From the NCBI GenBank assembly GCA_030615105.1, contig JAUWZV010000001.1, forward strand, positions 1,399 through 65,398: DNA of 64,000 nucleotides. The letters run 5' to 3'. The stretch is from Desulfobacteraceae bacterium (GTDB lineage Bacteria; Desulfobacterota; DSM-4660; Desulfatiglandales; B25-G16). Position numbers and translations under genes: made by a program. Below the pieces are notes generated by a model. The model was not told the origin of the DNA. It did not search any database and saw nothing but the letters and a program-made list of their open reading frames with translations. This document shows, piece by piece, positions 13,316-34,000 of the stretch (position 1 is its first letter; the number at the start of each line of letters is the position of its first letter).

Positions 13316-14119
13316 CTATCGCCCCTTCCACTGAGGTTTCCTCTTCTCAGCAAAGGCTTTGGGGCCCTCGACCCAGTCTTCAGATTCCATGGCCTGCTTA
13401 AAGAGGGAATATTCTGGTTTAATGGCTTCCTCGAGGGTCGGCTTTTCCATACCCTGGAGGGCGCACTGTTTGCTGGCTCTCACGGAAAGCGGGGCGCACT
13501 CAAGAATTTCGGCCGCCCACCTCTCAACTGTCTCCATGAGTACCTTCAATGGTACTACCTCATTGACTAGCCCATACTCTTTGGCCTGCTTGGCGGTAAT
13601 CAGTTTTGCCGTCAACATCATCCCCATAGCTAACTTCAAGGGGATCTGCCTGGGAAGGCGGTGAACACCACCTGCTCCTGCCACTAATCCTACCCTAGGC
13701 TCTCGAAGACCAAACTGAGCGTGTTCTGCAGCAATGATAATGTCGCAAGCAAGGACGATCTCAAAACCACCCCCAACAGCAACACCGTTGACCGCAGCAA
13801 TAATTGGTTTATAACAATCGAATCGTGTGGTGATCCCCCCGAAACCACCTCTAATCGCCTTTTCTGTCAATAACGATTCCTTTATGGCTTCAAAGCCTTC
13901 TTCTGCGGTGAACTTGAGGTCGTTTCCTGCGCAGAAGGCCTTCTCTCCTGCCCCCGTGTAGATGGCCACCCAGGCATCAGGATCCTCGCAGAAATCATCA
14001 AATGCCTTTGAAAGCTCCAAGTTTGCCGGTGGATGGAGGGCGTTCATGACTTCAGGGCGTTTGATGGTGATGTAGACCAGATGTCCCCTTTTCTCGCAAT
14101 TGATGAACTCGAATGCCAT
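13316..14119 (-). CDS. enoyl-CoA hydratase/isomerase (crotonase) family protein
   Basis: AFCAGNDLKF, AAVNGVAVGGGFE and a typical 267-aa crotonase fold pattern. An AAGGAGG RBS is present. Confidence 0.85.
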   Translation of the reverse strand: MAFEFINCEKRGHLVYITIKRPEVMNALHPPANLELSKAFDDFCEDPDAWVAIYTGAGEKAFCAGNDLKFTAEEGFEAIKESLLTEKAIRGGFGGITTRFDCYKPIIAAVNGVAVGGGFEIVLACDIIIAAEHAQFGLREPRVGLVAGAGGVHRLPRQIPLKLAMGMMLTAKLITAKQAKEYGLVNEVVPLKVLMETVERWAAEILECAPLSVRASKQCALQGMEKPTLEEAIKPEYSLFKQAMESEDWVEGPKAFAEKRKPQWKGR

Positions 14120-16311: not shown

Positions 16312-16503
16312 ATGCATACTACGAATCACAAAAAGTTAAAAGCAGAAATTGAAAATTATAGGATTAATGGAAAAAATATTTTCGAATCAAGGATGGATAA
16401 TGCATTTTCTATGCTCAAATTCAAAACACAGCTGAATCGAACCAAAACCAAGAAGAAAGATGGGGTATCATGCGGCGCATCTGCTGTTTATATTGATCTC
16501 TTG
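16312..16503 (+). pseudogene. possible N-terminal fragment of a DDE (IS4/IS1634-like) transposase
   Basis: FSMLKFKTQLNRTKTKKKDGVS resembles N-termini of IS4-type transposases, recalled from memory. It is cut off after about 64 codons by the 291-bp repeat. Confidence 0.3.
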
Positions 16504-16794
16504 CCTATCAACAATCGGCAGAGGACCCCGGGCGTAAGCCCGGGGGTGAATGCCTTAATGAGCACAACCTTGATGTCTTTTCTTACGTTCCAAGGCTCCC
16601 GGCCTGGTCTTTTCAACGACTTATCTGCAAGGGAGTTTTGCCCCCTCCGCATTCCCCCGACAAGTCGGGGGCTGCGGTTTCCCCCGCTGATAAGTCGTGA
16701 AAAGGACGGCGGCTTCTCACCAGTCACTCAGAAAAAACATCAAGGCCTGCCCTTGTCTCCAAGTGCCACGGGCGTAAGCCCGTGGGTATCTACT
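16504..16794 (+). repeat. 291-bp rod-hairpin repeat, copy 1
   Basis: Identical to 36748-37038 except for 7 substitutions and no indels (manual comparison). It contains two 8-bp hairpins with GTAA loops (16526-16545, 16766-16785) and a long central self-complementary region. Confidence 0.85.
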
Positions 16795-17088
16795 TTGAAG
16801 ATTAATAATATTCACAGTTTTTGCCTGAGACATTAGTATCATTAGTCTATCAGGCAAGAAATATGCCTTTTACAGGTTCAAACAGGGCGCATACCGATAG
16901 CATTCATTTATGAAAGCCTTTCATTTGTAATTAAAGAAAGATTATAAAAAAATAATAAAAAAAACTTGACAAGAAGGAAATAATAGGTGAATTTACAGTC
17001 TAAAATTAAACTGCTGGCCGGTAGATTAGTAATATTATACTGAAATGTCTACGGCATTCGAAAAAATTTTACGGCAGAAAGCTGCCAT

Positions 17089-17736
17089 ATGAAAATGGGA
17101 AAAAAATTAAACAGTCAGCCAGTTTATCATTCTCATAAAGTATCAAGTAAAAAGAACAGAAAAACTCAAATACTTGAAGCTGCCGCTTTGGTCTTCAAAA
17201 AAAAAGGTTATGATAGGGCCACTCTTCAAGACATTGTCAGCATTGTAGGCATAACCAAGGCGGCTCTCTATCATTACTTTCAAAACAAACATGAGCTGTT
17301 TTATACAATTATTCACACCATGATGATAAGGGGCATCGATGAGCTGACTAAAATTTTCGGAATGCCTATTTCGGCAGAAGAAAAGATCTGTCTTGCCTTC
17401 AAACAACACTTTTCCTCCTATGAATCTCATTTCCCTGAATTTTTGGTACTGCTTCATGAAAAGACCAATTTACTGCCTCCAAAAATGGAGAAACAAATCA
17501 AACAAGAATTTAAGCAGTATATGTCTTTTTGGGAGCAATTTATAAGGGAAGGAGTTGCAACAGGGCATTTTAGGCAAGATTTAGATCCAAAGATCATGAC
17601 TTGGTCGGCCATCGGGATGTGCAATTGGGTTTATAAATGGGCTTCCCCAAAAGGAAGGCTCAAATTCAATCAGATTGCTGAGATTTTTACCAGCATTTTT
17701 TTGGTAGGGATCCGGCATCGAGAAAAGGTCGGATAG
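17089..17736 (+). CDS. TetR/AcrR-family transcriptional regulator
   Basis: ILEAAALVFKKKGYDRATLQDIVSIVGITKAALYHYFQNKHELF is the TetR N-terminal HTH. Confidence 0.85.
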   Translation: MKMGKKLNSQPVYHSHKVSSKKNRKTQILEAAALVFKKKGYDRATLQDIVSIVGITKAALYHYFQNKHELFYTIIHTMMIRGIDELTKIFGMPISAEEKICLAFKQHFSSYESHFPEFLVLLHEKTNLLPPKMEKQIKQEFKQYMSFWEQFIREGVATGHFRQDLDPKIMTWSAIGMCNWVYKWASPKGRLKFNQIAEIFTSIFLVGIRHREKVG

Positions 17737-17961: not shown

Positions 17962-19119
17962 ATGGATTTCTCATTAAGTGAAGAACAGGAGATCTTACGT
18001 AATTCAATAAGGAAATTCCTGGAAAAGGAATATCCTAAAGAATACATTAGGAGAATCGATAAAGAAGAAGAATATCCTTTGGAGATCGTTCAAAAGATGG
18101 CCGAGTTGGGATGGCTTGGTCTTTCAATTCCAGAGAAATATGGAGGGGTTGGGGGTGACATTCTTGATCAGACTCTGATGATTGAAGAACTGGCTCGGTG
18201 TTCATCATCCATCGCTATAGCTTACTTGCTCAATATTTGTTTTGGTGCCAAGACCATCATTTACATGGGTAGCGAGAAGCAGAAAAAAAAATATTTACCT
18301 AAAATAGCCTCCGGTGATCTGATATTTTGTCTGGGCCTGACAGAGCCCAGCGGCGGAACAGATGCCCTCTCCTTGTCCACTCGAGCTGTAAGAAATGGTG
18401 ACCATTATGTAATCAATGGACAGAAGGTATTTATCACTGGGGCTCACGTATCTCACTACATAATTCTTGTGGCTAGGACGGGTCCCAAAAAGAAAAAACT
18501 AACACGAAATATTGGCATTTTTTTAGTGGATAGCAAGTCAAAAGGGATCAATATCCGTCTGCTTGATAAGCTCGGAAATAAAGCAACTGGAACCTGTGAA
18601 ATATTTTTAGAGGATGTGGTCGTTCCAGCCGAAAACATACTAGGTGATGAACGAAATGGTTGGTATCAAATCGTTAACACTCTTAATAACGAGAGGATTT
18701 CAGTAGCCGCTATTTGCTTAGGAACGACCCAGGCAGTTATCGATGAATCTTTGAAATATGTCTTGGAGCGAAAGGCATTTGGCAAGCCCATAGGTCAGTT
18801 TCAATATATTCAGAAATATATTGTCGATATGGTGATGGATCTGGAGGCCTCCCGGTTACTTACTTACAAGGCCGCCTGGCTTGAATCTCAAGGCAAAAAT
18901 TGCAATATTGAAGCTGCCATAGCCAAATTGGTGGCATCAGAGGCCTGTTTTAAAGCAACCACGAACGGAATGCGCATTTTCGCCGGATATGGGTACATGA
19001 TGGAATATGACATGCAGAGACTGTGGCGTGATTCTGAACTTTGGATCTTTGCCCCCATATCAAATGAAATGTCACGCAACCTTTTAGCGCAAGAATTGGG
19101 ACTCCCCAGATCTTATTGA
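17962..19119 (+). CDS. acyl-CoA dehydrogenase
   Basis: 385 aa. GLTEPSGGTDA and a typical ACAD three-domain pattern, with a C-terminal helical domain containing the catalytic-region motif YGYMMEYDMQRLWRD. Confidence 0.9.
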   Translation: MDFSLSEEQEILRNSIRKFLEKEYPKEYIRRIDKEEEYPLEIVQKMAELGWLGLSIPEKYGGVGGDILDQTLMIEELARCSSSIAIAYLLNICFGAKTIIYMGSEKQKKKYLPKIASGDLIFCLGLTEPSGGTDALSLSTRAVRNGDHYVINGQKVFITGAHVSHYIILVARTGPKKKKLTRNIGIFLVDSKSKGINIRLLDKLGNKATGTCEIFLEDVVVPAENILGDERNGWYQIVNTLNNERISVAAICLGTTQAVIDESLKYVLERKAFGKPIGQFQYIQKYIVDMVMDLEASRLLTYKAAWLESQGKNCNIEAAIAKLVASEACFKATTNGMRIFAGYGYMMEYDMQRLWRDSELWIFAPISNEMSRNLLAQELGLPRSY

Positions 19120-19246
19120 TCAAGTAATGTGGTCTCATGGAGCAGGCTGGGGTATGTATAAATCAAACATCATACGGTTTTCTGGTGGCAGAAAACCGGG
19201 GAAAGGGTAGTTTTTAAAACATTAATCACCATTGTGGGTATAAAAT

Positions 19247-20386
19247 ATGGGCAAGAGAGTAGCGATTGTTGATACGGTTCAGACCGAACACGGAGACAAA
19301 CTTGAGGACAATATCCGGGAGATCATGTTTGGCGTTGTCAGACAGCTCCTGGATCGTGTGGGAATTGAGAAATCCGAAATCGGGACCATGGTTTCAGCCT
19401 CCTCTGATTATTGGGAGGGGATCAGTTGCTCCAACGCCTATTATTATGATGCTGCGGGTGCCAATCTGAAGAGCGGTTCCAACGCGGAAGAGGACTCGGG
19501 TCTCGCCTTTATCTATGGTTTTATGCGAATTCTCTCGGGGGACTATAAAACCGCGTTGGTCATCAGTATAACGAAATGTTCGGAGACCCCCTCAGCGGCC
19601 ACTCTAACACACATGAGTGCGGACCCTTTTTTTCACCGGCCGGTCGGGCTAAATGAAACGGTGGTTGCAGGTCTTCAGGCAAGGGAATATATGAACCGCT
19701 ATGGCATCACAGAAGAAGACCTGGCCATGGTGGTGGTAAAAAATCTCGGAAACGCCCAAAAAAATCCATATGCACATAGGGGTGGGCAACTGTCTGAGGA
19801 AGAGGTCTTGGCTTCATCCATGATGGTCTATCCCTTGCGAGAAATGGATATCCCCTCCACCTCTGATGGTGCCTGCGCAGTTTTATTGGCCGAGGAAAAG
19901 ATTGCCAGGGATCTGACCGATACACCGATATTTGTTGAGGGCGTGGGCTGGGGTACTGATCATTCCTTTTTGGGAGATCGAAATCTTTTAAATGGATCCT
20001 TGCCAAAAGCGGCTGAGAGGGCCTATCAGATGGCTGGGGTAAAAGATCCTTCCAACGAGATAGACATGGCCGAAATCTGCGATATAACCTCCTTTCATGA
20101 GATCTTATGGATGGAGCAATTGGGTTTTTGCCCCCCAGGAAAGGGAGCAGATCTTGTCAAAGACGGCGTAACAGCTATGCATGGCAAACTTCCGGTGAAC
20201 CCTTCCGGAGGTTTGTTTGGGGCCAATCCCTATGTTGCCCGCGGTCTGATCCGGATTGCTGAGGCCGCTATGCAGCTAAAGGGAGAGGCGGGAGATCGTC
20301 AGGTGCTGGACGTGAGCAGGGCGGTTGCCCAAAGCGTTCACGGGTTGGGCGGTCAATTACATTCTGTCATTATTCTTGGAACATAG
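19247..20386 (+). CDS. SCP-x-type thiolase-like protein lacking the nucleophilic Cys
   Basis: Thiolase-like throughout (VNPSGGL, HGLGG). Where the paralog has ATCGSTG, this protein reads NAEEDSGLAF. Confidence 0.8.
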   Translation: MGKRVAIVDTVQTEHGDKLEDNIREIMFGVVRQLLDRVGIEKSEIGTMVSASSDYWEGISCSNAYYYDAAGANLKSGSNAEEDSGLAFIYGFMRILSGDYKTALVISITKCSETPSAATLTHMSADPFFHRPVGLNETVVAGLQAREYMNRYGITEEDLAMVVVKNLGNAQKNPYAHRGGQLSEEEVLASSMMVYPLREMDIPSTSDGACAVLLAEEKIARDLTDTPIFVEGVGWGTDHSFLGDRNLLNGSLPKAAERAYQMAGVKDPSNEIDMAEICDITSFHEILWMEQLGFCPPGKGADLVKDGVTAMHGKLPVNPSGGLFGANPYVARGLIRIAEAAMQLKGEAGDRQVLDVSRAVAQSVHGLGGQLHSVIILGT

Positions 20387-20398
20387 GGAGAATTTGGT

Positions 20399-21565
20399 AT
20401 GGGTCACGCAGTAGCCATTATCGGTACGGGTCAGACTCACTGTGGAAAAAGAACGGATGTTTCCTATCCTGAATTGATTTATGAGGCAGTAAGTAGGGCC
20501 TTTGAGGATTCCGGGCTGAGTCCGGATGATATTGAGGCCGTTGTGTCAGGCTCGATGCCTCCTGCCATGGAAGGTGTCAATAACCCCCACCTTTATTGGG
20601 CCGATGCCATGGGTGCCGGAGGAAAACCTCTCATAAGGATTGCGACCTGTGGTTCTACCGGCATATCGCTGGCTCATGCCGGTTTTTATCATGTGTCCTC
20701 AGGGCTTTTCGATCTGGTCCTGGTGGTGGGGGCAGAAAAGATGTATGAGGGAAACCCACAGGGGGTCATGGCCACTGTGGCAGATCCATTCTTTCAGAGG
20801 CCATTTTTGGCCGGTGCACCTGGGATCTTTGCACTTCAATCCAACGAATGGGCTCACCGTTATGGCCTTGAAGAGAAACGGGTGCGAATGGCTGCTGCCG
20901 AGTTATCAGTGCGAAACCATACGGATGCCCTGGATAATCCCTATGCTCACATTAAGGTTAAGATTGCTGTCGAGGATGTTCTTAAATCCCGTGTCATTGC
21001 TTATCCAGTCAGGATTCTGGATGTGTGCCCGGCCTCAGATGGTGCCTGCGCGGTTATCATGGCCTCGGAAAGAATGGTCAGAAAAATGGGGGCGAAGCCA
21101 GCCTGGATTCGTGGGGTAGGTTACTGTGGCGAAGAGGCATTTTTTGGTGAGGGAGACAAAGTGGTCTGGCAGGCTGCCATCAATGCGGCCAAAACAGCTT
21201 ACAAGCAGGCAGGCATAACAGATCCACGGAAAGAAATAGATGTGGCTGAGGTGTATAACCCTTTCACATTTCAGGAAATGCTTTTTTATGAGTGCTTTGG
21301 TTTTTGTGATTTTGGCCAGGCCTGCGAGCTTGTGGAGAAAGGGGTTGTTATGAGAGGAGGTGATCTCCCTTGCGATCCTTCCGGAGGTGTGCTTTGCACC
21401 AATCCCATCGGTGCAACCGGTTTACAGAGGGCCGCTGAGATCGCACTTCAGGTAACCAACAAGGCGGGTGACCATCAGATTCCCGGAGCAAGTACGGGAC
21501 TGACACATGCCATGGGAGGCCTTGATCAATTTAATGGGATTATGATCATTTCAAATTCATTATAG
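20399..21565 (+). CDS. SCP-x-type thiolase-like protein (Cys present)
   Basis: IRIATCGSTGISLAHA...VVGAEKM and CDPSGGV. It has CTNPIGATG where thiolases usually have GHPxGA(T/S)G. Confidence 0.8.
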   Translation: MGHAVAIIGTGQTHCGKRTDVSYPELIYEAVSRAFEDSGLSPDDIEAVVSGSMPPAMEGVNNPHLYWADAMGAGGKPLIRIATCGSTGISLAHAGFYHVSSGLFDLVLVVGAEKMYEGNPQGVMATVADPFFQRPFLAGAPGIFALQSNEWAHRYGLEEKRVRMAAAELSVRNHTDALDNPYAHIKVKIAVEDVLKSRVIAYPVRILDVCPASDGACAVIMASERMVRKMGAKPAWIRGVGYCGEEAFFGEGDKVVWQAAINAAKTAYKQAGITDPRKEIDVAEVYNPFTFQEMLFYECFGFCDFGQACELVEKGVVMRGGDLPCDPSGGVLCTNPIGATGLQRAAEIALQVTNKAGDHQIPGASTGLTHAMGGLDQFNGIMIISNSL

Positions 21566-21580
21566 TCACAGGGGGCATTT

Positions 21581-22045
21581 ATGAGTGGAGAATCCAGAAT
21601 ATTAGAAGGCTACGTTAGTTTGCCCTATAAATGGGCAATGGGTGCTGCTACCACCCGTTTCTTTGAAGAATTAAAAAACAAGAAAATTATGGGAACAAAA
21701 TGTCCAAAATGTAATCGGGTTTTGATACCGGCTAGAAGCTTCTGTTCCCATTGCTTTGAGAAAATAGATGAGTGGAAGGAGGTTTCACAAGAAGGAACAC
21801 TTAGGACCTGGTGTACGGTAAATTTTTCTTATGAAGGGCAACCCAAGGAGCCTCCTTACATCCTCGGCATCATTGATCTGGATGGCGCGGATGTAGGACT
21901 TCCCCATTTTGTGGGAGGCGTGGATTTGGACGACTTTGAGGAAGCTGCCAAAAAGGTTCATATCGGAGGCAGGGTAAGGGCGGTCTGGAAAGAGAATAGA
22001 ACGGGGAATATCCTGGATATAGATTATTTCCAACCGGTTGAATAA
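21581..22045 (+). CDS. DUF35 zinc-ribbon / OB-fold protein (thiolase partner, BbsA-like)
   Basis: CPKCNRVLIPARSFCSHC rubredoxin-like ribbon followed by an OB-fold-like C-half. It lies immediately downstream of the thiolase pair. Confidence 0.8.
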   Translation: MSGESRILEGYVSLPYKWAMGAATTRFFEELKNKKIMGTKCPKCNRVLIPARSFCSHCFEKIDEWKEVSQEGTLRTWCTVNFSYEGQPKEPPYILGIIDLDGADVGLPHFVGGVDLDDFEEAAKKVHIGGRVRAVWKENRTGNILDIDYFQPVE

Positions 22046-22120: not shown

Positions 22121-23746
22121 ATGGTTAAGAAAGAGAGCAGATCTACCATTTCTGGGATTTCTCAGAAAATTTTCTACCCACGGGCAGACATTGTCCACAC
22201 AATGACTGAAGGGAAAGAGGAGAAACCAGGGGAATTTCCTTTCACTCGAGGAATTTTCCCCCAGGGCTACCGTCAACAGCCATGGATGGAGAGTTTGGCG
22301 AGCGGCTATGGATTACCTGAAAAAACCAACGAGCGGGAGAAGTACTTGTCTAAGGTCGGACAGGCGGGATACGGTGGCCGAGCGTCTATCAACCTGGTCT
22401 TTGATAGGCCTACGTTCTGCGGCATGGACAGTGATCATCCCATGGCTCAGAACGAATTGGGCGAGGTTGGTGTGATCATTGATTCCCTGATGGACATGGA
22501 GCGACTTTTTAAGGGCTTCCCCTTGGACAGATTGAACGTAGGTTTTATTGCTGACCGCTCAGGCCCTATCATTATGGCCATGTATGTGGCCCTTGCTGAC
22601 AAGCTTGGTATCTCTAGGCATAAGTTGAGGGGGATTGTCTGCAACAATCCTTTGACAGACTTCTACTGCAGCAAGACCCCGATGTTTCCACTCCGAGAGT
22701 GCCTTCGTCTGATGGTGGATTGCATCAAGTTTTGTACTGAAGAGGTGCCCAATTTCAACATTGCTCGAATTGGAGGTTACAACACCAGGGAACTGGGCAG
22801 TACTGCGATTCAGGAGATCGGTTTTAACTTAGCCATTGCAAAAACCATTGTGGAGGCCTGTGTAGAGGAAGGACTGAGTGTTGACAAATTTGCGGGCAAC
22901 ATCAGCTTTCAGTTTTCCCAGGGGAGCTACTTTTTCGAGGAGATTGCCAAGATACGCGCGGCGCGAAGGATTTGGGCCAAATTGCTGAAAGAAGGATTTG
23001 GTGCAGAGAAAGACTCTATTTGTCGGATGAAGATCCACATGCAGACTGCTGGCTCCAGCCTCACAGCACAGGAGCCCCTTAACAACATTGCTCGCATTGC
23101 GCTTCAGGTTTTGTCTGCGAGCCTCTCCGGCTGCCAGAGTATGCATATTGCCTCCTTTGATGAAGCCCTTGGCATTCCTACCGAAGAAGCTGCTAGTGTG
23201 GCTATCAAAACCTCCAAGATCGTGATGCACGAGACAGGAATAACAGATGTAGCTGACCCATTAGGTGGTTCCTATTATATGGAGGCTCTGACAGAGGAAA
23301 TTGAGAAGAGGATTGTGAAACTTATGGAGCGTATCGACGAACTTGGAGGAGCGATTAAGGCAATTGAGGAGGGGGTTTTCGAACAAGAGATTGCCGATGC
23401 CAGTTACTTGCTTCAAAAAGAGATATCTGAGGGCAAACGAGTTATCGTGGGGATGAATCGTTTTCAGGAGAAAGACCAGAAGCTGGAGTATAAGGTCTTT
23501 AGGCCCGATCCGAAGGTATCCAGCATAGCTATAGATCGTGTGAGGAAACTGAGGGAAGAGAGGGATCAGGAGCGGGCGGAAAAATGTATTGAACAAATTA
23601 GAGAAGCAGCGCGAAGAAATGAGGCACTAATGCCCCTCTATATCGAAGCTGCTAAGTCCAATGTCACGCTTGGGGAGATGATTAGAGCCCTGGAAGAGGG
23701 ACTGGGTACATTCCAATATTCGCCGATTATCTCCAGGGTTGAATAA
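22121..23746 (+). CDS. B12-dependent acyl-CoA mutase large (substrate-binding) subunit, paralog 1
   Basis: FPFTRGIFP, FFEEIAKIRAARRIWAKL, HMQTAGSSLTAQEPLNNIARIALQ, DEALGIPTEEA and DPLGGSYYMEALT are methylmalonyl-CoA-mutase family blocks. Confidence 0.85.
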   Translation: MVKKESRSTISGISQKIFYPRADIVHTMTEGKEEKPGEFPFTRGIFPQGYRQQPWMESLASGYGLPEKTNEREKYLSKVGQAGYGGRASINLVFDRPTFCGMDSDHPMAQNELGEVGVIIDSLMDMERLFKGFPLDRLNVGFIADRSGPIIMAMYVALADKLGISRHKLRGIVCNNPLTDFYCSKTPMFPLRECLRLMVDCIKFCTEEVPNFNIARIGGYNTRELGSTAIQEIGFNLAIAKTIVEACVEEGLSVDKFAGNISFQFSQGSYFFEEIAKIRAARRIWAKLLKEGFGAEKDSICRMKIHMQTAGSSLTAQEPLNNIARIALQVLSASLSGCQSMHIASFDEALGIPTEEAASVAIKTSKIVMHETGITDVADPLGGSYYMEALTEEIEKRIVKLMERIDELGGAIKAIEEGVFEQEIADASYLLQKEISEGKRVIVGMNRFQEKDQKLEYKVFRPDPKVSSIAIDRVRKLREERDQERAEKCIEQIREAARRNEALMPLYIEAAKSNVTLGEMIRALEEGLGTFQYSPIISRVE

Positions 23747-23760
23747 AGGGGAGGAATGAC

Positions 23761-24171
23761 GTGGACAAACAGAGAAAAATACGTGTGCTACTTGCAAAGG
23801 CAGGGTTGGATACCCATGAGAGGGGGGTGAAGCTGATTGCCGCCTCTCTGCGGGACGCCGGTATGGAGGTGATTTATAGTGGTGTGTTCCAAACGAGCAT
23901 GAGCATTACCCGTACCGCCCTCCAAGAGGATGTGGATGTCATTGGCCTGAGTTATTTGTGTGGAGCGCATCAATCATTGACTCAGGAGATCTTGAAAGAG
24001 CTTCAAAAAAACGGGCTGGGAGATGTAGCGGTTATCTGCGGCGGTATTATTCCTGGTGAAGACATCGAGCAGATGAAGGCCATAGGCGTCAAAGAGATTT
24101 ACGGTCCTGGTACACCTATGGAGAGAATTATCAAAGGTATACATGAATTGGCTGAATCCAGGATTCATTAG
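23761..24171 (+). CDS. cobalamin-binding small subunit, paralog 1
   Basis: GTG start with a GGGGAGG RBS. RVLLAKAGLDTHERGVK carries the DxHxxG motif, followed by a Rossmann-like B12-binding domain. Confidence 0.85.
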   Translation: MDKQRKIRVLLAKAGLDTHERGVKLIAASLRDAGMEVIYSGVFQTSMSITRTALQEDVDVIGLSYLCGAHQSLTQEILKELQKNGLGDVAVICGGIIPGEDIEQMKAIGVKEIYGPGTPMERIIKGIHELAESRIH

Positions 24172-24413
24172 ATTGTTATTTGAAATGAGGTTGTTCGCAC
24201 TATGTATGCTATACCCGATCTCTGAAACGAAAGCTCTAAGATCTTAGGGCATCATTGGAAGATATCTCCGTTTTGCGTAGGGATGAATAGCATAGTTGTT
24301 GAGGGATATGGGGGAATGATTCTCTCGACACGCGAGATAGTCCCTTCTTTGATGCCCCGGCCTTTGGTTGGGGAGTGATAGTGGGAAGCGAGCTTAAGGG
24401 AGGAGGAAGTATC

Positions 24414-26114
24414 ATGTTTGAAAAGGGTTTTCTAACACAGGTTAAAAAGAGAAAGACAGATTGGTTAGAGAAAAAATACTCTCAAGCGGTGGAAAGGTTT
24501 ACAGAGAGGAAAAAACGCTTCGAGACCAATGCTGGGATAGAAATCGACCCCCTTTACACACCTGATAATCTGGAAAAAGAGAATTATTTTGAAAAGATAA
24601 GTTTTCCTGGAGAATTCCCCTACACCCGGGGATCTTACCCCATAGGGTATCGCTCAAGATACTGGCAGCCTCGAGGGTATTGTGGATTTGGGACATCTGA
24701 AGAAACCAACGAAAGGCTGAAATTTGCCCTGCAACAGGGGGAGCCGGGGTTGAATGTTATTGTAGATCTGCCCACCTCCTATCATGGGATTGACGCGGAT
24801 GATCCGAGGGCCGAAGGAGAGGTTGGAAAAACCGGTGTCAGCATCAATTCCATTGAAGACATGCGGGATCTCTTTGAAGGGATTCCGATTGATAGGATTT
24901 CTATAACCTTTAATACCACCGGGTTGGTTATTATGGCTATGTACTTTGCGATGGCTCGGGAAAGAGGGGTCCCCTTTAAAAATCTTTGGGGAACTGCCCT
25001 TAATAACCCTTTAGCTTCTTACGTTTCCTGCAACTCTGCCTGCTTGCCTATCCCGGAAGATGCCCTAAGAGAATTAACAGATATCGTAGAGTTTGCTGTT
25101 AGAAACCTGCCTAAATGGAATCCTATGAACATTGGGTCCTATGAATATCGTGAAAATGGTGCCAACGCAATTCAAGAATTGGCCTTCATGTTCGGCAACG
25201 CCATGGCCTATACGGATTCTTTTATCCATAGAGGGCTGGATTTTGATGAATTCGCACCAAAATACGTTTTCTATACATCCGTTCAGACTAACTTATTTGA
25301 GGAGATAGCCAAGTTCCGTGCAGCGAGAAGAATCTGGGCAATGATCGCCCGAGATCGTTACAAAGCCAAGAATCCTGCTTCCATGATTTTCAGGATTCAC
25401 GCGCAGACCTCAGGATTCAGCATGACGGCAGAGCAACCCTTGAACAATATAGTCCGTGAGACGATTCAGAGCCTGGCAGCGGCTTTAGGTGGCACCAATT
25501 CTCTTTATACTAACTCTTATGATGAAGCCCTTTGCCTTCCCACGGAGGAGGCCCTTCGAACGGCCATGCGGGTTCAGCAGATTATTATGGAAGAGAGCGG
25601 TGTAGCCGATACCATCGATCCTTTAGGCGGTTCCTACTATGTGGAAACCCTAACAAACAAGATGGAAGAGCGGGTTTGTAGACTTATAAAGGAGATAGAT
25701 GATAGGGGAGGTATGGTTAAGGCTATTGAAAGCGGTTGGGTGCAATCTGAGTGTGAGCGCTCGATCGCCACCTATATGGACAGGGTGGAAAAAGGAGAAA
25801 TAGTTGTTGTGGGCTACAATAAATACCAGATCGATGAACCAGTACAATATGGTGTTTTTAGCGTGGATCCCAAATACGAACTCAAACAGCGAAATCGGCT
25901 GAAGAAACTGAGGGCAGAAAGGAACAAGGAAGAGGTTTCAAAGGCCCTGGATATGCTTCGGGAAGCGGCGAAGGGAAACGAAAATATGATGATTCCATGC
26001 ATGGAGGCAGCCCGCGCAAGGGCCACCTTTGGTGAGATGACAGAGGCCATTTACGGGCAAATGAGATCATTTAGAAGTCAATTTAAGGACCTGAAGATGA
26101 AGATGTATGCATAA
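24414..26114 (+). CDS. B12-dependent acyl-CoA mutase large subunit, paralog 2
   Basis: Track ORF 24375. ATG 24414 follows a GGGAGGAGGA RBS. Family blocks: FPYTRGSYP, LFEEIAKFRAARRIWAM, HAQTSGFSMTAEQPLNNIVRETIQ, DPLGGSYYVETLT. Confidence 0.85.
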   Translation: MFEKGFLTQVKKRKTDWLEKKYSQAVERFTERKKRFETNAGIEIDPLYTPDNLEKENYFEKISFPGEFPYTRGSYPIGYRSRYWQPRGYCGFGTSEETNERLKFALQQGEPGLNVIVDLPTSYHGIDADDPRAEGEVGKTGVSINSIEDMRDLFEGIPIDRISITFNTTGLVIMAMYFAMARERGVPFKNLWGTALNNPLASYVSCNSACLPIPEDALRELTDIVEFAVRNLPKWNPMNIGSYEYRENGANAIQELAFMFGNAMAYTDSFIHRGLDFDEFAPKYVFYTSVQTNLFEEIAKFRAARRIWAMIARDRYKAKNPASMIFRIHAQTSGFSMTAEQPLNNIVRETIQSLAAALGGTNSLYTNSYDEALCLPTEEALRTAMRVQQIIMEESGVADTIDPLGGSYYVETLTNKMEERVCRLIKEIDDRGGMVKAIESGWVQSECERSIATYMDRVEKGEIVVVGYNKYQIDEPVQYGVFSVDPKYELKQRNRLKKLRAERNKEEVSKALDMLREAAKGNENMMIPCMEAARARATFGEMTEAIYGQMRSFRSQFKDLKMKMYA

Positions 26115-26244
26115 GGCAGATTGTAATTTGTTATGCGGTGAAGAATGGTTTTGGATAGAGTGTTCCAGAATTGTGGGATCTAAAGCCATTTTCTGAACAC
26201 AACCTGACCAGTTATACTCAATACCTGATTTACGGAGAGTAGCT

Positions 26245-26643
26245 ATGTCCAATGGAAGGAAATTAAGAGTGCTTTTAGCAAAGCCTGGCTTGGACGGACA
26301 CGACTTAGGTATCAAGTTGGTGGCAAGAGCCTTGAGGAATGCCGGGATGGAGGTTGTGTACACTGGGCTTAACATAACTCCGGAAGAGACGGTAACCGTA
26401 TCAATCCAGGAGTCAGTGGATGTGATAGGGGTTAGTTATCTATCTGGTTCACATCTTCTGCTAACTGAAAAGATAATGGGAATACTCAAGGAAAAAGATG
26501 CTGGCCATTTTAAATTGGTAGTAGGTGGAATTATTCCAGAAGAGGACATCCAGAAATTGAAGCAGATGGGTGTTGCGGAGGTCTTCCGACCTGGCACATC
26601 TGTTAAAGAAATTGCGGATTCCATAGGCCGGATGGTTTGTTAA
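26245..26643 (+). CDS. cobalamin-binding small subunit, paralog 2
   Basis: RVLLAKPGLDGHDLGIK carries the DxHxxG motif. Confidence 0.85.
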   Translation: MSNGRKLRVLLAKPGLDGHDLGIKLVARALRNAGMEVVYTGLNITPEETVTVSIQESVDVIGVSYLSGSHLLLTEKIMGILKEKDAGHFKLVVGGIIPEEDIQKLKQMGVAEVFRPGTSVKEIADSIGRMVC

Positions 26644-26906: not shown

Positions 26907-28721
26907 ATGTCTGGTGATACACTGGTTAGTCTTTTTCACAAAATGGCCTTGAAGAAAAAAGAACAGACGGCCTTAAGAAAAAAAGACTTTGGCGTCTGGA
27001 ATCCCATCAGCTGGAACGAATACAATGAACACGTCAAATACTTCTGCCTGGGGATGAGATCATTGGGGCTTAAAGCCGAAGACAAGGTGGGCATACTTGG
27101 AGAGCCCCGCTCTGAATGGATTTACGCTGAATTATCCACCCAAACTGCCGGGGCCATTGTGGTGGGGCTCTATTCGACAAGCCCACCTCCCCAGATCCAT
27201 TATATTCTCCACCATAGCGAGGCCGTATTTGTTATAGCCGAGGATCAGGAACAGGTAGATAAAATTTTGGAAATTAAAGATGATCTCACGATGCTCAAGC
27301 AGATCATTTATATGGATCCAAAAGGTCTCAGACATTACGAAGAGCCCATGCTCATAAGTTTTTCAAAGGTAGAGGAGTTAGGCAGGGAAATTGATGGAAG
27401 AGAACCCCATTTGTATAATGAATTGGTTGCCCAGGTTAAAGAAGATGACATTGCAATGATCATCTATACGTCTGGGACAACGGGCAATCCGAAAGGCGCC
27501 ATGATTTCCCATCACAATATCAAGGCCATGATCGATGATATGACAAAGATAACAGGTATTTGTGAAAAAGACTCTGTAGTCAGTTACCTTCCTTTGTGTC
27601 ACATCGCTGAACAGATTTTTTCTGTTTTTATTCCTTTAAAAGTTGGGGCAGTTTGTAATTTTGCCGAAAGCATAGAAACGGTAAACGAAAATATTCGTGA
27701 GATTTCTCCAACAATATTTCTCGGAGTTCCGAGAATTTGGGAGAAAATGCATAGCGATATCTTGGTGAAAATTGAGCGATCAACCCCCCTAAAACGCCTC
27801 CTTTTCAAGTTGTTCATGATACCTGGAGAAAAGATGGCACAAAAGAAATTTTCCAAGAAGCGAATTGGTCTCATCTTGAGAATTTTAAACTTTATCGCTT
27901 ACTATGGATTGTACCGCGCGCTGCAGGACAAATTAGGCCTTCTGAGAGGGAAACTGATCATAAGTGGAGCGGCAGCTATAGGCCCCGATGTGATTCAATT
28001 TTTTCATGCAATAGGCCTTAATGTTCGTCAAGCCTACGGCATGACTGAGACAGCAGGATTGACCTTCATACATCAAGATAACCAGGTCAAATTAGATACG
28101 GTTGGTAATAGTATTCCCAGCCTTTCAGTTAAGCTTGCAGAGGATGGTGAGATATTGAAGAAGGGGGAGTCTGTCTTTGTTGGATACTTCAAAGACCCTG
28201 AAAGCACTGCCGCCGTAAAGAAAGACGGCTGGCTCCATACGGGGGATATTGGGGAGTTCGATGAAGATGGCCAACTGAAGATAGTAGATAGAAAAAAAGA
28301 CCTGATTGTCACACCGGGTGGTAAAAATATTGCTCCTCAATATATCGAAAACAAACTTAAATTCAGTCCTTATATCGGTGAGGTGATTGTAATCGGTGAG
28401 AACAAAAGATACATCGCGTCTCTCATTCAGCTTAATCTGGATATGGTAAGCGAATGGGCCATGGCCCAGAAAATCTACTTTACGACCTATACGGATCTCT
28501 CCAGGAAACCGGAGGTTTACGAATTGATTGCCGACGAGATTCGAAATGTAAACAAAACGTTATCGCGTGTAGAGTCAATCAAGAAATTTCTGATTCTTGA
28601 AAAGATGTTGGATCACGATGATGAAGAGCTAACCGCCACCATGAAAATCAGACGAAAAAAACTGATACAACTTTACGAAGAAAAGATCGAGGAACTGTAT
28701 ACTAGTGGTTATACCGTTTAG
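26907..28721 (+). CDS. AMP-forming acyl-CoA ligase (long-chain-fatty-acid--CoA ligase family)
   Basis: IYTSGTTGNPKGAM AMP-binding motif, GYGMTE-like YGMTETAG, HTGDIGEFDEDGQLKIVDRKKD. 604 aa. Confidence 0.85.
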   Translation: MSGDTLVSLFHKMALKKKEQTALRKKDFGVWNPISWNEYNEHVKYFCLGMRSLGLKAEDKVGILGEPRSEWIYAELSTQTAGAIVVGLYSTSPPPQIHYILHHSEAVFVIAEDQEQVDKILEIKDDLTMLKQIIYMDPKGLRHYEEPMLISFSKVEELGREIDGREPHLYNELVAQVKEDDIAMIIYTSGTTGNPKGAMISHHNIKAMIDDMTKITGICEKDSVVSYLPLCHIAEQIFSVFIPLKVGAVCNFAESIETVNENIREISPTIFLGVPRIWEKMHSDILVKIERSTPLKRLLFKLFMIPGEKMAQKKFSKKRIGLILRILNFIAYYGLYRALQDKLGLLRGKLIISGAAAIGPDVIQFFHAIGLNVRQAYGMTETAGLTFIHQDNQVKLDTVGNSIPSLSVKLAEDGEILKKGESVFVGYFKDPESTAAVKKDGWLHTGDIGEFDEDGQLKIVDRKKDLIVTPGGKNIAPQYIENKLKFSPYIGEVIVIGENKRYIASLIQLNLDMVSEWAMAQKIYFTTYTDLSRKPEVYELIADEIRNVNKTLSRVESIKKFLILEKMLDHDDEELTATMKIRRKKLIQLYEEKIEELYTSGYTV

Positions 28722-28744: not shown

Positions 28745-29644
28745 ATGGGCGAAGAATTGGAATATCTAATTCAAACGATCATGGGGGGGCTATCCACAGG
28801 GAGCGTGTATGCCTTAATTGCCCTTGGGTTTGTTCTGATCTATAAAGCTACAGACGTTTTAAATTTTGCTCAGGGTGAACTGATGATGATGGGGGCCTTT
28901 TTCTGTTTCACGGCCATCGTCTATTTCAAACTTAGTTTCATTCCCGCCTTTTTGCTATCCCTTGTCTTTTCTGCGGTCATAGGCTTTCTCATCAATGTGA
29001 TCGCTATTCGGCCCATGGTAGGCAAACCCGTATTTTCCATAGTGATGATCACTATCGGCTTGGCTACCATTTTTCGAAGTATAGTTGGCCTCATTTTTGG
29101 ACATATTGAGAAACCATTTCCTTCGCCTTTTCCCATTGAAAAAGCCATCAATATAGGAGGCTTATACATCTCCATGGTGCATATCTGGATGATCTCCATT
29201 AGCATCATCTTCGTGCTTTTATTTTACCTCTTTTTCAAGTTCTCAATCCTCGGTATCGCCATGAAGGCCGCCGCCAATGAGCAGATAGCCACCATGCTAC
29301 AGGGCATCAATATCAAAAAAATGTTTGCCCTGTCATGGGGCATTGCTGCAATTACTTCCACGGTTGCAGGCGTTTTTCTGGCCAGTGCGAGCTTCATCCA
29401 TTGTGATATGGGGTTCATTGGTCTCAGGGCATTTCCAGCAATCGTTCTCGGTGGCTTGGATAGTGTGGCGGGAGGGGTCATCGGCGGATTTACCATTGGT
29501 TTGATTGAGAACTTGGCTGGTGCTTATTTAGATAAGGCCCTTGGGGGTGGGGTTAAGGAGATCACATCCTATGTCATTGTGATCTTTATCATGATGATCA
29601 AACCATATGGCCTTTTTGGAAAGGAACATATCGAAAGGGTATAA
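28745..29644 (+). CDS. LIV-type ABC transporter permease (LivH-like)
   Basis: Multi-pass membrane protein. NFAQGELMMMGAF and the C-terminal IKPYGLFGK are typical of LivH. Confidence 0.85.
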   Translation: MGEELEYLIQTIMGGLSTGSVYALIALGFVLIYKATDVLNFAQGELMMMGAFFCFTAIVYFKLSFIPAFLLSLVFSAVIGFLINVIAIRPMVGKPVFSIVMITIGLATIFRSIVGLIFGHIEKPFPSPFPIEKAINIGGLYISMVHIWMISISIIFVLLFYLFFKFSILGIAMKAAANEQIATMLQGINIKKMFALSWGIAAITSTVAGVFLASASFIHCDMGFIGLRAFPAIVLGGLDSVAGGVIGGFTIGLIENLAGAYLDKALGGGVKEITSYVIVIFIMMIKPYGLFGKEHIERV

Positions 29645-29650
29645 GTATTA

Positions 29651-30694: not shown

Positions 30695-30808
30695 ACCTAT
30701 GATCCTAACGTGGGCGGAAAAATATCTTTAGAGGAAGGGAGGTGACAAATGGTTTTTGTTAATTTTGGGAATGAAATATTAATGTTAAACAATGAGGAGG
30801 TATAAAAA

Positions 30809-33964: not shown

Positions 33965-34000
33965 TGGGGTGGATATAGCTTTATTTTTGGAGTTGAGAGA

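Follow-up and report, generated by a model that had tools for sequence, protein, structure and literature searches.

A thiolase-like gene pair followed by a DUF35 gene as a candidate heteromeric C-C lyase

In the 64,000-nt stretch of DNA analysed here (the window), two adjacent genes for thiolase-fold proteins, ThlA and ThlB, are followed by a gene for a DUF35 protein. The trio probably cuts C-C bonds in unusual (branched) acyl-CoA compounds, and the reading that we favour, with a probability of roughly 0.45, is a heteromeric, Tyr-dependent lyase of the retro-aldol type. An earlier note on this DNA had proposed an active/inactive heteromer, or a retro-Claisen/aldolase-type activity, for the DUF35-linked pair. 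The evidence fits aldolase-type or otherwise non-canonical C-C cleavage by a heteromer that includes DUF35, with the retro-aldol form favoured and a thiolase built on Cys84 of ThlB as a serious rival.

From the observed gene order, residue patterns, conservation, and gene contexts, we infer complex formation, the catalytic subunit, the reaction type, and the substrate as follows. ThlA, ThlB, and the DUF35 protein would form one heteromeric complex with DUF35 as the scaffold. ThlB would be the catalytic subunit, performing a retro-aldol cut of the C2-C3 bond in a 3-hydroxyacyl-CoA. This substrate would most plausibly be branched or tertiary and be the product of an acyl-CoA dehydrogenase (ACAD) and a hydratase. 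Tyr286 would be the base acting on the 3-OH, the acyl-CoA enolate may be stabilised by Asn335 and backbone amides, and Cys84, which is particular to the ThlB ortholog group, would serve as a proton donor or relay and not as the nucleophile that takes up the acyl group. ThlA, presumably a partner without thiolytic activity or a specificity subunit, would form no acyl-enzyme and would shape or close the substrate pocket. The predicted products are acetyl-CoA (or propionyl-CoA) and a ketone or aldehyde, and the large A/B clade to which the complex belongs would have departed from thiolase chemistry.

Gene layout, domains, and active-site residues

The three open reading frames described in the earlier note, a thiolase-like pair and then a DUF35 gene, are all present on the + strand. 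They are separated by gaps of 12 nt (ThlA-ThlB) and 15 nt (ThlB-DUF35), with the ribosome-binding sites GGGAG and GGGGG within the triad. The DUF35 gene is intact, with all four zinc-ribbon Cys in place (C41-x2-C44 and C55-x2-C58), and the PDB matches of its product were 3irb, 6esq_E, 6ok1_B, and PhlB. The cluster contains the following features:

17089..17736, + strand: TetR-family regulator, first gene of the cluster (Pfam TetR_N, TetR_C_24)
17962..19119, + strand: acyl-CoA dehydrogenase (ACAD) just 5' of the triad (Pfam Acyl-CoA_dh_N, _M, _1)
19175..19198: perfect 10-4-10 palindrome in the ACAD-ThlA spacer, CGGTTTTCTG-GTGG-CAGAAAACCG
19247..20386, + strand: ThlA, A-type thiolase-fold paralog, 379 aa
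20399..21565, + strand: ThlB, B-type thiolase-fold paralog, 388 aa
21581..22045, + strand: DUF35 protein, 154 aa, Cys4 zinc ribbon plus OB fold (Pfam zf-ChsH2, OB_ChsH2_C)
22121..24171, + strand: split acyl-CoA mutase 1 (large subunit 22121-23746; B12-binding small subunit 23761-24171)
24375..26643, + strand: split acyl-CoA mutase 2 (large subunit 24375, or 24414, to 26114; small subunit 26245-26643)
26907..28721, + strand: AMP-forming acyl-CoA ligase
28745-32020, with the ATPase at 34479-35273: LIV-type ABC transporter genes after the ligase

The palindrome may act as an operator or form an RNA stem.

Both paralogs scored above the gathering score of Thiolase_C_1 (Pfam PF22691; cut-off 28), with 114.1 bits for ThlA and 110.9 bits for ThlB. 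For Thiolase_N, ThlB passed with 45.7 bits, whereas ThlA fell narrowly below (23.0 versus a cut-off of 26.4). The AF2 models of ThlA and ThlB had the thiolase fold over the full length (pTM 0.77 and 0.79) at an only moderate pLDDT (70), and their best Foldseek matches were SCP2-thiolase, an archaeal thiolase, BbsB, and ST0096, with TM from 0.72 to 0.82. The best solved match of ThlA was ST0096 (PDB 4yzo; 145 bits, Foldseek rank 1). ThlB matched true thiolases with 156-131 bits (Foldseek E 1e-32 to 1e-29), whereas Ltp2 and Sal were more distant, at 69 bits (Foldseek E about 1e-25 and 1e-23). No NCBIfam thiolase equivalog cut-off was reached by ThlA or ThlB; the top score was that of ThlB against PRK08313 (395.7 versus 514), and ThlA scored 179 against PRK07937, a 'lipid-transfer protein' (cut-off 419). 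The scores for the Bbs families were far below the cut-off, with 144.5 versus 750 for ThlB against BbsB and 27.1 versus 250 for the DUF35 protein against BbsA.

The active-site residues were located in HMMER alignments to Pyrococcus 7yvy, zebrafish SCP2-thiolase 6hsj, ST0096 4yzo, and BbsB 7pxp, all of which have both the GHP His and the HDxx His. Beneath the GHP His lies an Asn in each paralog, Asn335 in ThlB (TNPIGATG, 334-341) and Asn327 in ThlA (ANPYVARG, 326-333), in agreement with the earlier claim that both lack this His. At the HDCF position, where SCP2-thiolase reads H-D-C-F and BbsB and 7yvy read H-D-A-F, ThlB reads Y286-N-P-F and ThlA reads C278-D-I-T. ThlB has Cys84 within ATCGSTG (82-88), whereas the ThlA elbow, E82-D83 within NAEEDSG (79-85), has no Cys and is two residues shorter (BLASTP gap; loop 81-83 versus 82-86 in the AF2 models). 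The missing nucleophile of the first paralog was thereby confirmed, and the check for a shifted Cys found none in the ThlA elbow. The HDCF-site replacements and the shortened elbow had been overlooked in the earlier note.

The replacement of both thiolase His in ThlA and ThlB would argue for a lyase. It also bears on another alternative, namely that the two proteins are a regular pair of thiolases for acetoacetyl-CoA or 3-ketoacyl-CoA. The Pfam thiolase domains and the automatic JGI and NCBI names of homologs ('acetyl-CoA C-acetyltransferase') suggest such a pair, but we consider it highly improbable: ThlA has no nucleophile, the GHP His is missing from both proteins, as is the canonical NEAF with a CxG or HDCF set, and the best equivalog score, that for PRK08313, stayed below its cut-off. 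These motif losses support the earlier view that the pair is not a standard acetoacetyl-CoA thiolase.

Conservation of the triad and the role of Cys84

Residue conservation was counted over about 120 cluster representatives per protein (119 for ThlB). Y286, P288, F289, N335, and P336 of ThlB were each present in 100% of the 119 representatives, as was Cys84 in a canonical C-x-S elbow. In ThlA, C61, which lies about 20 residues before the elbow in a loop poorly modelled by AF2, and D83 were conserved in 100%, C278 in 93% (Ser in 7%), and N327 in 92% (His in 8%). The residue pattern is not chance: these positions vary little or not at all among the roughly 120 representatives of each protein, and the gene order recurs across phyla. 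The active/inactive heteromer suggested in the earlier note is supported in that ThlA is unable to provide the thiolase nucleophile; however, 'inactive' is unproven, given that ThlA has its own conserved C61, D83, C278, and N327.

The A and B genes were adjacent in 27 of 28 distinct loci from Desulfobacterota, Dehalococcoidia, Bacillota, and Thermoproteota, the DUF35 gene came next in 24 of the 28, and the spacers measured 11-20 nt in most loci, which argues for a heteromer. ThlB orthologs were also present in Asgard archaea. ThlB was better conserved than ThlA in 24/24 loci (means 73% versus 59%).

The A-like proteins group with the B-like ones in a clade separate from canonical thiolases. 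The B-like clusters taken from a 50%-identity library (n=34) have a common [YQFH]...N signature. Position 84 is Cys in only two of them, the clusters whose representatives are ThlB and P0246; in the remaining 32 it is Gly (26), Ala (4), Ser (1), or Asn (1). The chemistry of the family can therefore apparently do without Cys, and this dispensability, seen also in the Ser and Gly paralogs, would favour the lyase.

Within the ThlB ortholog group, in contrast, Cys84 is invariant (119/119), and such selection, as expected of a nucleophile, would count against a lyase. It would suit a non-canonical thiolase or acyltransferase, the serious rival mentioned above, which we regard as possible. Cys84 would then be the acyl-accepting nucleophile in a retro-Claisen reaction on a (branched) 3-oxoacyl-CoA, with the Tyr286 hydroxyl and the Asn335 amide as an oxyanion hole in place of the two His, ThlA as a catalytically silent partner, and DUF35 as the scaffold. 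This rival agrees with the C-x-S elbow and with the position of ThlB nearer to true thiolases than to Ltp2 and Sal in sequence and fold, an observation that argues against the lyase. KAS III and chalcone synthase enzymes ordinarily have an Asn at the GHP-equivalent site, as part of their Cys-His-Asn triad, which provides a parallel for Asn335. The products would require no further aldehyde or ketone enzymes, and the gene contexts agree with this. By analogy, PhlC may also count against the lyase as a precedent for C-C chemistry with Cys and Tyr, since it works via an acyl-enzyme with Cys88, Tyr298, and His347 as its catalytic residues. A Cys84 thiolase would nevertheless have lost both His and the HDCF acid/base Cys, and ThlB is nested among B-like clusters without the Cys (NJ tree, no bootstrap support). 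Moreover, the ortholog loci examined have MaoC hydratases and no hydroxyacyl-CoA dehydrogenase.

Gene neighbourhoods and wider significance

The recurrent neighbours of the triad in about 40 related loci are ACADs, MaoC/crotonase hydratases, acyl-CoA ligases or CoA-transferases, and transporters, with ACADs adjoining orthologous triads at many loci. In Syntrophales, Cys-bearing triads stand in operons of the order ACAD-MaoC hydratase-ThlA-ThlB-DUF35-CoA transferase, and loci L046-L048 have the order ACAD-MaoC-A-B-DUF35. Desulfobacterota have clusters of the form ThlA-ThlB-DUF35-MaoC-ThlA'-ThlB'-DUF35', and a homologous ligase and transporter accompany the triads in other Desulfobacterota.

No SDR or 3HCDH dehydrogenase was found at any Pfam-annotated ortholog locus, and neither family was among the 25 most-matched families listed (down to two members) for 88 neighbours at 16 loci. 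The ACAD-MaoC contexts without these dehydrogenases argue for a lyase, although a dehydrogenase gene missing nearby does not prove its absence from the pathway. Two other observations stand against the lyase: no aldehyde- or ketone-processing gene was consistently near the triads, and no hydratase, MaoC included, was found in the triad operon of the window. The sole hydratase-type gene of the window is a crotonase at 13316-14119 on the opposite strand. The ACAD beside the triad in the window reached no NCBIfam equivalog cut-off.

The earlier note had connected the triad with a branched 3-oxoacyl-CoA produced after mutase action. Among the roughly 40 related loci, mutases lie beside the triad only in the window and in L001, which is the same contig from another source, and L027 holds a mutase fragment. 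The proposed connection with mutase products is a weak one, as the mutase neighbourhood is specific to the window. There is likewise no indication of a 3-oxoacyl-CoA substrate: by Pfam annotation, the window encodes no SDR or 3HCDH hydroxyacyl-CoA dehydrogenase, and none stands beside the orthologous triads.

A wider reading, which we consider rather unlikely, would see in the triad a class of heteromeric thiolase-fold C-C lyases that is widespread among strict anaerobes (Desulfobacterota, Syntrophales, Dehalococcoidia, Bacillota, and Thermoproteota) and has gone unrecognised. Such lyases would replace the dehydrogenase and thiolase steps of beta-oxidation by a hydratase-lyase shortcut for beta-branched or blocked acyl-CoAs. 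In the ThlB ortholog group, the Cys would have been re-acquired within a Gly-Gly elbow, giving a new Cys/Tyr/Asn set, and ThlA would hold a second functional pocket.

The label 'acetyl-CoA C-acetyltransferase' stands on such genes in thousands of metagenome-assembled genomes, and because of it triad genes pass for ordinary beta-oxidation thiolases when anaerobic fatty-acid and hydrocarbon degradation is reconstructed. If either a heteromeric lyase or a Cys/Tyr/Asn thiolase were true, the pathway maps would misrepresent the C-C cleavage step. The triad would also be a candidate enzyme for beta-branched acyl-CoAs in anaerobes, and the thiolase superfamily would gain a heteromeric architecture whose only named relative, Ltp3-Ltp4, is known only from genetics.

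Comparison with DUF35-linked and other thiolase-fold systems

The catalytic Tyr of the thiolase-fold aldolases is found in Y294DHF of Ltp2 and Y302DCY of Sal, and the second catalytic residue is Tyr344 in Ltp2 and Cys304 (YDCY) in Sal (PMC12329534). Tyr286 of ThlB falls in the column of the HDCF His in the alignment and at the Tyr294 site of Ltp2 when mapped through the aligned spans of the match to 6ok1, an analogy that would favour the lyase. Asn335 lies at the site of Ltp2 Tyr344 and Sal Gln352. The counterparts of Cys304 and Tyr344 are missing in ThlB, which has Pro288 and Asn335 there, and the loss of this second residue of the known aldolases would argue against a lyase.

Like the triad, the steroid side-chain aldolases Ltp2-ChsH2(DUF35) and Sal-Shy(DUF35) combine a thiolase fold with a DUF35 partner and have another residue in place of the GHP His. 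The steps just before Ltp2 and Sal are those of an ACAD and a MaoC hydratase, with no dehydrogenase in between, and the orthologous triad loci resemble this arrangement. The ortholog operons mirror ChsE/ChsH/Ltp2 and Shy/Sal, whereas the window has the adjacent ACAD but no MaoC. In contrast to the triad, Ltp2 and Sal are homodimers without a second thiolase-like paralog, and their DUF35 is fused to a hydratase. They also have no elbow Cys (Gly89 in Sal), as is the case in 32/34 sister B-like clusters, whereas ThlB retains Cys84.

The benzoylsuccinyl-CoA thiolase BbsAB and the archaeal thiolase/HMG-CoA synthase/DUF35 complex, named as precedents in the earlier note, are apt as SCPx-type thiolases bound by a stand-alone DUF35 and are among the top sequence and fold matches. 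They are, however, not the closest architecture, as each contains a single SCPx-type thiolase in which both His are present; closest are the neighbouring A-like and B-like paralogs with an OB-fold gene in Actinobacteria. They retain Cys, H-D-x-F, and G-H-P (SACSAG, ELHDAF, and GHPIGASG in BbsB), and the partner of the thiolase is absent in Bbs and HMGCS in the archaeal complex, whereas it is an SCPx paralog in the triad.

The multicomponent acyltransferases PhlACB and MucABC have three components in the same order as the triad, namely a Cys-less subunit, a Cys-bearing SCPx-like subunit, and DUF35. PhlC Cys88 and Tyr298 match ThlB Cys84 and Tyr286 by spacing, whereas His347 corresponds to Asn335. 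PhlA is HMGCS/KAS III-like, whereas ThlA is SCPx-like (Pfam), and the PhlACB/MucABC substrates are CoA-free phenolics in a biosynthetic system.

These systems and the archaeal complex are the models for a further alternative, a two-site channelling or condensing complex in which each subunit performs a different step. ThlB would perform Claisen chemistry or acyl transfer, and ThlA would use C61, D83, and C278 to catalyse another reaction. The intermediate would travel through a common cavity that DUF35 closes off, and the complex may run in the biosynthetic direction. The invariant polar residues of ThlA at or near active-site-equivalent positions, the bridging of two different thiolase-superfamily enzymes by DUF35 in PDB 6esq, 5m3k, and 9vbo, and the likeness of the A-B-DUF35 order to phlA-phlC-phlB fit such a complex. 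We hold it to be improbable, considering the weaker conservation of ThlA, the variability of C278 and N327, and the catabolic contexts (ligase, transporters, ACAD, and hydratase). In addition, D83 sits at a helix N-cap in the AF2 model, so a structural role suffices to explain its conservation.

ST0096 of Sulfolobus tokodaii resembles ThlA in the missing nucleophilic Cys, with Ser instead; unlike ThlA, it retains H-D-M-A, G-H-P, and an elbow of full length.

The closest named relative of the triad is Ltp3-Ltp4, called a heteromeric aldol-lyase in the literature, where a retro-aldol cleavage of branched, hydrated acyl-CoA was proposed for it. Ltp3-Ltp4-type loci have adjacent thiolase-like paralogs and an OB-fold/DUF35-type gene in common with the triad, and their hosts are aerobic steroid degraders. 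To our knowledge, Ltp3-Ltp4 has been defined genetically and has no biochemical characterisation. A Tsukamurella locus, which we tentatively take by synteny to be ltp4-ltp3, stands in for it here.

The actinobacterial counterparts of the triad (L049 and L050) share the B signature (Y-x-P-F, N-P-I-G-A) with ThlB and the A signature (x-D elbow) with ThlA, at identities of 39-42% for B and 29% for A. Their order is OB-fold-A-B with a longer OB-fold protein (about 310 aa), whereas that of the triad is A-B-DUF35, and their B subunits have Ala or Gly at the ThlB Cys84 site. By analogy, these A/B/OB-fold triads and the literature name of Ltp3-Ltp4 would argue for the retro-aldol-type lyase. With the Tsukamurella B-like protein as the query, the matches were named only 'thiolase domain-containing protein'.

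The ThlA-ThlB-DUF35 triad and its conservation

ThlA and ThlB, two adjacent thiolase-like paralogs, form a triad with a DUF35 gene inside a longer row of forward-strand genes.

Gene row in the window (coordinates, strand, feature)
17089-17736, +, TetR regulator, start of the row
17962-19119, +, acyl-CoA dehydrogenase (ACAD)
19247-20386, +, ThlA, 379 aa
20399-21565, +, ThlB, 388 aa
21581-22045, +, DUF35 protein, 154 aa
22121-24171 and 24375-26643, +, two split B12 acyl-CoA mutases
26907-28721, +, AMP-forming acyl-CoA ligase
after the acyl-CoA ligase, +, LIV-type ABC transporter genes
32204-34432, +, third split mutase
35095-37080, +, large subunit of the fourth mutase, truncated

The ThlA/ThlB/DUF35 genes are separated by 12 and 15 nt, with a purine-rich ribosome-binding site in each gap. 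Pfam Thiolase_C_1 matched both ThlA and ThlB strongly, and the N-terminal thiolase domain was above the cut-off in ThlB and narrowly below it in ThlA. In the DUF35 protein, the Cys4 ribbon is intact (C41, C44, C55, and C58). Among its structural matches, SSO2064, the founding DUF35 structure, ranks first; the next are DUF35 subunits, namely that of the archaeal thiolase/HMGCS complex, ChsH2, and PhlB. The 127-nt ACAD-ThlA spacer contains a perfect 10-4-10 palindrome at 19175-19198, CGGTTTTCTG GTGG CAGAAAACCG, a candidate TetR operator or RNA stem-loop. The promoter and terminator scan returned counts no higher than in shuffled sequence.

Among the scored candidates, more than 2000 detectable homologs were found for ThlA and more than 4500 for ThlB, all from uncultured anaerobe-type lineages and generically named. 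ThlB directly follows ThlA in 27 of 28 non-redundant ThlA loci, the sole exception being a contig edge, and DUF35 comes next in 24 of the 28 (contig ends account for two of the three exceptions). These loci span Desulfobacterota (Desulfobacterales, Desulfomonilaceae, and Syntrophales), Dehalococcoidia, Bacillota, and Thermoproteota; Asgard archaea also carry ThlB orthologs. Mean identity to the window proteins was 73% for ThlB, 64% for DUF35, and 59% for ThlA, and all 24 of 24 loci showed higher conservation of ThlB than of ThlA. In about 120 cluster representatives of each protein, T83, C84, G85, Y286, P288, F289, N335, and P336 of ThlB were 100% conserved, as were C61 and D83 of ThlA, with E82 and C278 at 93% and N327 at 92% (remainder His). 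ThlA-ThlB-DUF35 is a real three-gene module under selection. One Jordarchaeaceae locus (L045, 8001-9170) encodes a ThlB ortholog of 65% identity that keeps the Cys/YNPF/N signature, with no adjoining ThlA and no recognisable DUF35; the next gene is a 140-aa ORF lacking a Pfam match. This locus may be an exception to the rule of an obligate triad.

Active-site residues and the wider A/B family

Residues were placed by HMMER alignments of ThlA and ThlB to solved structures, and the motifs quoted in the earlier note were all found in place. The counterpart of ThlB Cys84 was the Cys nucleophile in both the Pyrococcus thiolase 7yvy and zebrafish SCP2-thiolase; against BbsB, the benzoylsuccinyl-CoA thiolase subunit, the two Cys were one residue out of register. 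Asn335 occupies the His position of the GHP motif, and Tyr286-Asn-Pro-Phe lies under the H-D-C-F of SCP2-thiolase and the H-D-A-F of BbsB and 7yvy; thus, ThlB is devoid of both catalytic histidines and of the SCP2-type acid/base Cys.

In ThlA, Asn327 takes the place of the GHP His and Cys278-Asp that of HD, and its nucleophile loop (elbow) is two residues shorter than that of ThlB. The BLASTP alignment of the two proteins (35% identity) places the gap exactly on ThlB Cys-Gly, and in the AF2 models, which reach a pLDDT of only 70, the strand-to-helix loop spans 81-83 in ThlA versus 82-86 in ThlB, with Asp83 of ThlA as the helix N-cap. A shifted Cys was sought in the ThlA elbow and none was there, in agreement with the claim that ThlA lacks the Cys nucleophile; the sole caveat is the invariant Cys61, located in a loop that the AF2 model leaves unresolved. 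The earlier note had also suggested that the pair may not be a standard thiolase, and here the motifs contradict an acetoacetyl-CoA thiolase identity, which is effectively excluded. Immediately N-terminal to the E-D elbow, ThlA residue 79 (19481-19483) is Asn in the window and Lys in 119 of 121 family representatives, a change at a near-invariant site.

In characterised enzymes, the HDCF of SCP2-thiolase corresponds to YDCF in TbSLP, Y302-D-C304-Y in Sal, and Y294-D-H-F in Ltp2; the catalytic base is Tyr in both aldolases, Sal and Ltp2, the nucleophile position of Sal is Gly, and Sal Gln352 is equivalent to Ltp2 Tyr344 (PMC12329534). The motif spacing (294 to 344 in Ltp2, 302 to 352 in Sal, and, one residue shorter through a deletion, 286 to 335 in ThlB), together with the coordinate spans of a segment search, puts Sal Gln352 and Ltp2 Tyr344 at the GHP His position, ThlB Tyr286 on Ltp2 Tyr294 and PhlC Tyr298, and ThlB Asn335 on Ltp2 Tyr344 and PhlC His347. 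In PhlC, Cys88 is the acyl-accepting nucleophile, acting with Tyr298 and His347; its partner PhlA is without the catalytic Cys, and the DUF35 protein of the system is PhlB (PMC6392133). The Cys/Tyr/Asn set of ThlB is a hybrid, resembling the Sal/Ltp2 aldolases in its Tyr and non-His residue and PhlC in its pairing of Cys and Tyr.

The main rival to an aldolase-like reading takes Cys84 as the true nucleophile of a thiolase or acyltransferase whose oxyanion hole is formed by Tyr and Asn. It draws on the absolute conservation of Cys84, on the PhlC precedent, and on an overall similarity that favours thiolases (131-156 bits, against 69 bits for Ltp2), with a concordant Foldseek ranking; we regard it as possible, though somewhat doubtful.

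The wider family bears on the role of this Cys. An unfiltered search of ThlB against 1.84 billion 50%-identity representatives yielded 545 proteins at E <= 1e-30; of the best 150, the 125 that were full-length were aligned with ThlA and ThlB. Three classes emerged: canonical thiolases, with a Cys elbow, H-D-[CA]-F, and G-H-P (46); B-like proteins, with [YQFH]-x-x-x followed by N-P-I-G-A (34); and A-like proteins, with an x-D-G elbow, the other two sites being variable (32). Another 15 proteins fell outside all three. Position 84 is Cys in only two of the 34 B-like clusters, those represented by ThlB and P0246; in the remaining clusters it is Gly (26), Ala (4), Ser (1), or Asn (1). A neighbor-joining tree built without bootstrap sets A-like and B-like proteins jointly apart from canonical thiolases and nests the Cys-bearing ThlB group within Gly-type B clades. 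The rarity of the Cys and this nesting argue that the conserved chemistry of the B family is based on Tyr and Asn-Pro, not on a Cys nucleophile; the ThlB ortholog group, in which the Cys is strictly kept, is the exception.

The pattern recurs at the level of loci. Ser-type B proteins (N-S-T-S-G-S-T and Y-D-P-F) belong to a second, paralogous Desulfobacterota triad downstream of the first. This second triad is common to many Desulfobacterota (loci L005-L010, L035, and L038-L040), for instance at 12913-16396 of L035, behind a MaoC hydratase gene, and is followed by a LIV-type ABC transporter and a ligase. The double triad, with its sigma-54 activator, appears to be an uncharacterised double C-C-cleavage cassette. 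Gly-type B proteins (A-T-G-G-T-T-G and Y-E-P-C) occur in Planctomycetota and Acidobacteria, where a third triad type (L029-L034) has the order DUF35-A-B-DUF35-ACAD, with DUF35 on either side.

Proposed reaction, genomic context, and nearest named system

We assign a probability of about 45% to a heteromeric ThlA/ThlB complex with DUF35 in which ThlB would perform a Tyr286-based, retro-aldol-type cleavage of a 3-hydroxyacyl-CoA; only sequence, conservation, and context are observed, and from them we infer that a complex forms, which subunit is catalytic, what type of reaction it performs, and on which substrate. ThlA and ThlB would form one heteromer stapled by DUF35, with the adjoining ACAD and a hydratase supplying the substrate. 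The enolate would be stabilised by Asn335 together with backbone amides, and Cys84 would donate or relay a proton. A branched compound (a tertiary alcohol) would be the most sensible substrate because the dehydrogenase step is impassable for such compounds, and it would fit the branched-chain flavour of the operon (mutases and LIV transporter). A two-site channelling complex, in which ThlA has an activity of its own, would draw on the invariant C61 and D83 of ThlA; we consider it quite unlikely.

The 64-kb window encodes no 3HCDH- or SDR-type 3-hydroxyacyl-CoA dehydrogenase, and its sole hydratase is a crotonase on the opposite strand (13316-14119). Cys-bearing triads of Syntrophales and relatives follow a sigma-54 activator in the order ACAD-MaoC hydratase-ThlA-ThlB-DUF35-CoA transferase-ACAD; those of Desulfobacterota follow one as ThlA-ThlB-DUF35-MaoC-ThlA'-ThlB'-DUF35'-ABC-ligase. 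Others adjoin more thiolase/DUF35 sets, ligases, a TRAP transporter, and a Zn-ADH, and one Dehalococcoidia genome has a lone triad beside hopanoid genes. The succession of ACAD, MaoC hydratase, and a thiolase-fold protein with DUF35 follows the logic of ChsE/ChsH/Ltp2 and Shy/Sal. Neither SDR nor 3HCDH genes were found in the Pfam-annotated loci of orthologous triads, nor among the 25 most-matched families listed, down to two members each, for 88 neighbour ORFs of 16 further loci. Pfam revealed no single conserved partner in those 88 neighbours; the commonest families, with three members each, include BKACE, sigma-54 activator, ECH, MaoC, ABC_tran, and MBL. The earlier note had tied the triad to the mutases. 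This tie did not hold beyond the lineage: mutases adjoin the triad only in the window and L001 (same contig, other source), with a fragment in one archaeal locus, so the link is lineage-specific and not a property of the module.

A tblastn search of ThlB against plasmid-labelled records recovered actinobacterial proteins at 39-43% identity. The Tsukamurella locus runs OB-fold protein (~310 aa), A-like (359 aa), B-like (390 aa), and its neighbours are an AMP-ligase, a crotonase, an F420 oxidoreductase, and a P450; a Rhodococcus plasmid has ACAD-ACAD-MaoC-MaoC-A-like-B-like-DUF35-CaiB-SDR-ligase. The actinobacterial B proteins read T-A-G or T-G-G, Y-[VA]-P-F, and N-P-I-G-A, and the elbow of the Tsukamurella A protein is M-D. 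We take the Tsukamurella neighbourhood to match M. tuberculosis Rv3515c-Rv3523 (fadD19, echA19, cyp142, Rv3521, ltp4, and ltp3); Wilbrink 2012 is reportedly the original paper on ltp3/ltp4. Reviews and primary papers call Ltp3-Ltp4 a 'heteromeric aldol-lyase' or 'putative SCP-2 aldolases', with a proposed role in removing the C24 branch of phytosterols after hydration. The Tsukamurella B-like protein as query returned only generically named homologs, so the Ltp3 link is one that we infer. NCBIfam scores stayed below cut-off for ThlB (PRK08313, 395.7 of 514), for ThlA (PRK07937 'lipid-transfer protein', 179 of 419), and for other B-like and A-like representatives.

DUF35-associated thiolase-fold C-C enzymes and the idea of a heteromeric thiolase-like aldol-lyase are already known; hence, the triad is not a new kind of system. 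What is new is the very widespread ortholog group in anaerobes and archaea, the Cys/Tyr/Asn set of ThlB, matched by no characterised member, and the recognition of A-like and B-like paralogs as a large clade distinct from thiolases and annotated throughout as acetyl-CoA acetyltransferase. The searchable literature describes no biochemically or structurally characterised member of the A/B architecture, and in searchable full text the two-paralog triad is not described, the DUF35 and thiolase papers covering single-thiolase systems only.

Mutases, repeats, and mobile-element signs

The four split acyl-CoA mutases are paralogs in one operon. HcmA (4r3u) is the best PDB match of both searched large subunits, at 416 bits for 22121 and 438 bits for 24375. 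The known specificity residues are absent from all four: the MCM Tyr89/HcmA Ile90 position is Ala, Tyr, Val, and Leu, the MCM Arg207 position is Ser, Cys, Asp, and Asn, and the second mutase has Ile at HcmA Asp117. Their candidacy as 2-hydroxyisobutyryl-CoA mutases (HCM) feeding 3-hydroxyacyl-CoA was rejected because neither Ile90 nor Asp117, both specific to HCM, is conserved.

A 291-nt direct repeat (98% identity, copies spaced 20,244 nt) at 16504-16794 and 36748-37038 flanks the whole operon from TetR to the fourth mutase, and a partial third copy lies at 10001-10159 (86% identity over 160 nt). The fourth large-subunit ORF extends into the downstream copy, and the repeat-encoded peptide recurs in a spurious ORF at 16312-16836. 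This mutase matches Pfam MM_CoA_mutase at profile positions 2-444 of 512 only and has no small-subunit gene after it; it was probably truncated through repeat insertion. GC content is 43-50% between the repeats versus 35-41% in the flanks, and the bracketed region is suggestive of an acquired or mobile cassette. The Rfam scan of the window found only one tRNA and no match for the 291-nt repeat.

Upstream of the bracketed operon, a tyrosine-recombinase (phage-integrase family) gene at 7932-9128 (+) adjoins the tRNA gene at 9163-9246 (-), and a primase/AAA_25 protein is encoded at 1304-3103; together they may mark an integrated-element boundary. An intergenic 94-nt repeat family, with GGCGC at the start and GGTCTGGGCCAGGG at the end, occurs at 40156-40249, 40346-40439, and 51753-51846 (copies 67-71% identical), and a separate 77-nt intergenic repeat of 91% identity lies at 40489-40565 and 57460-57536.
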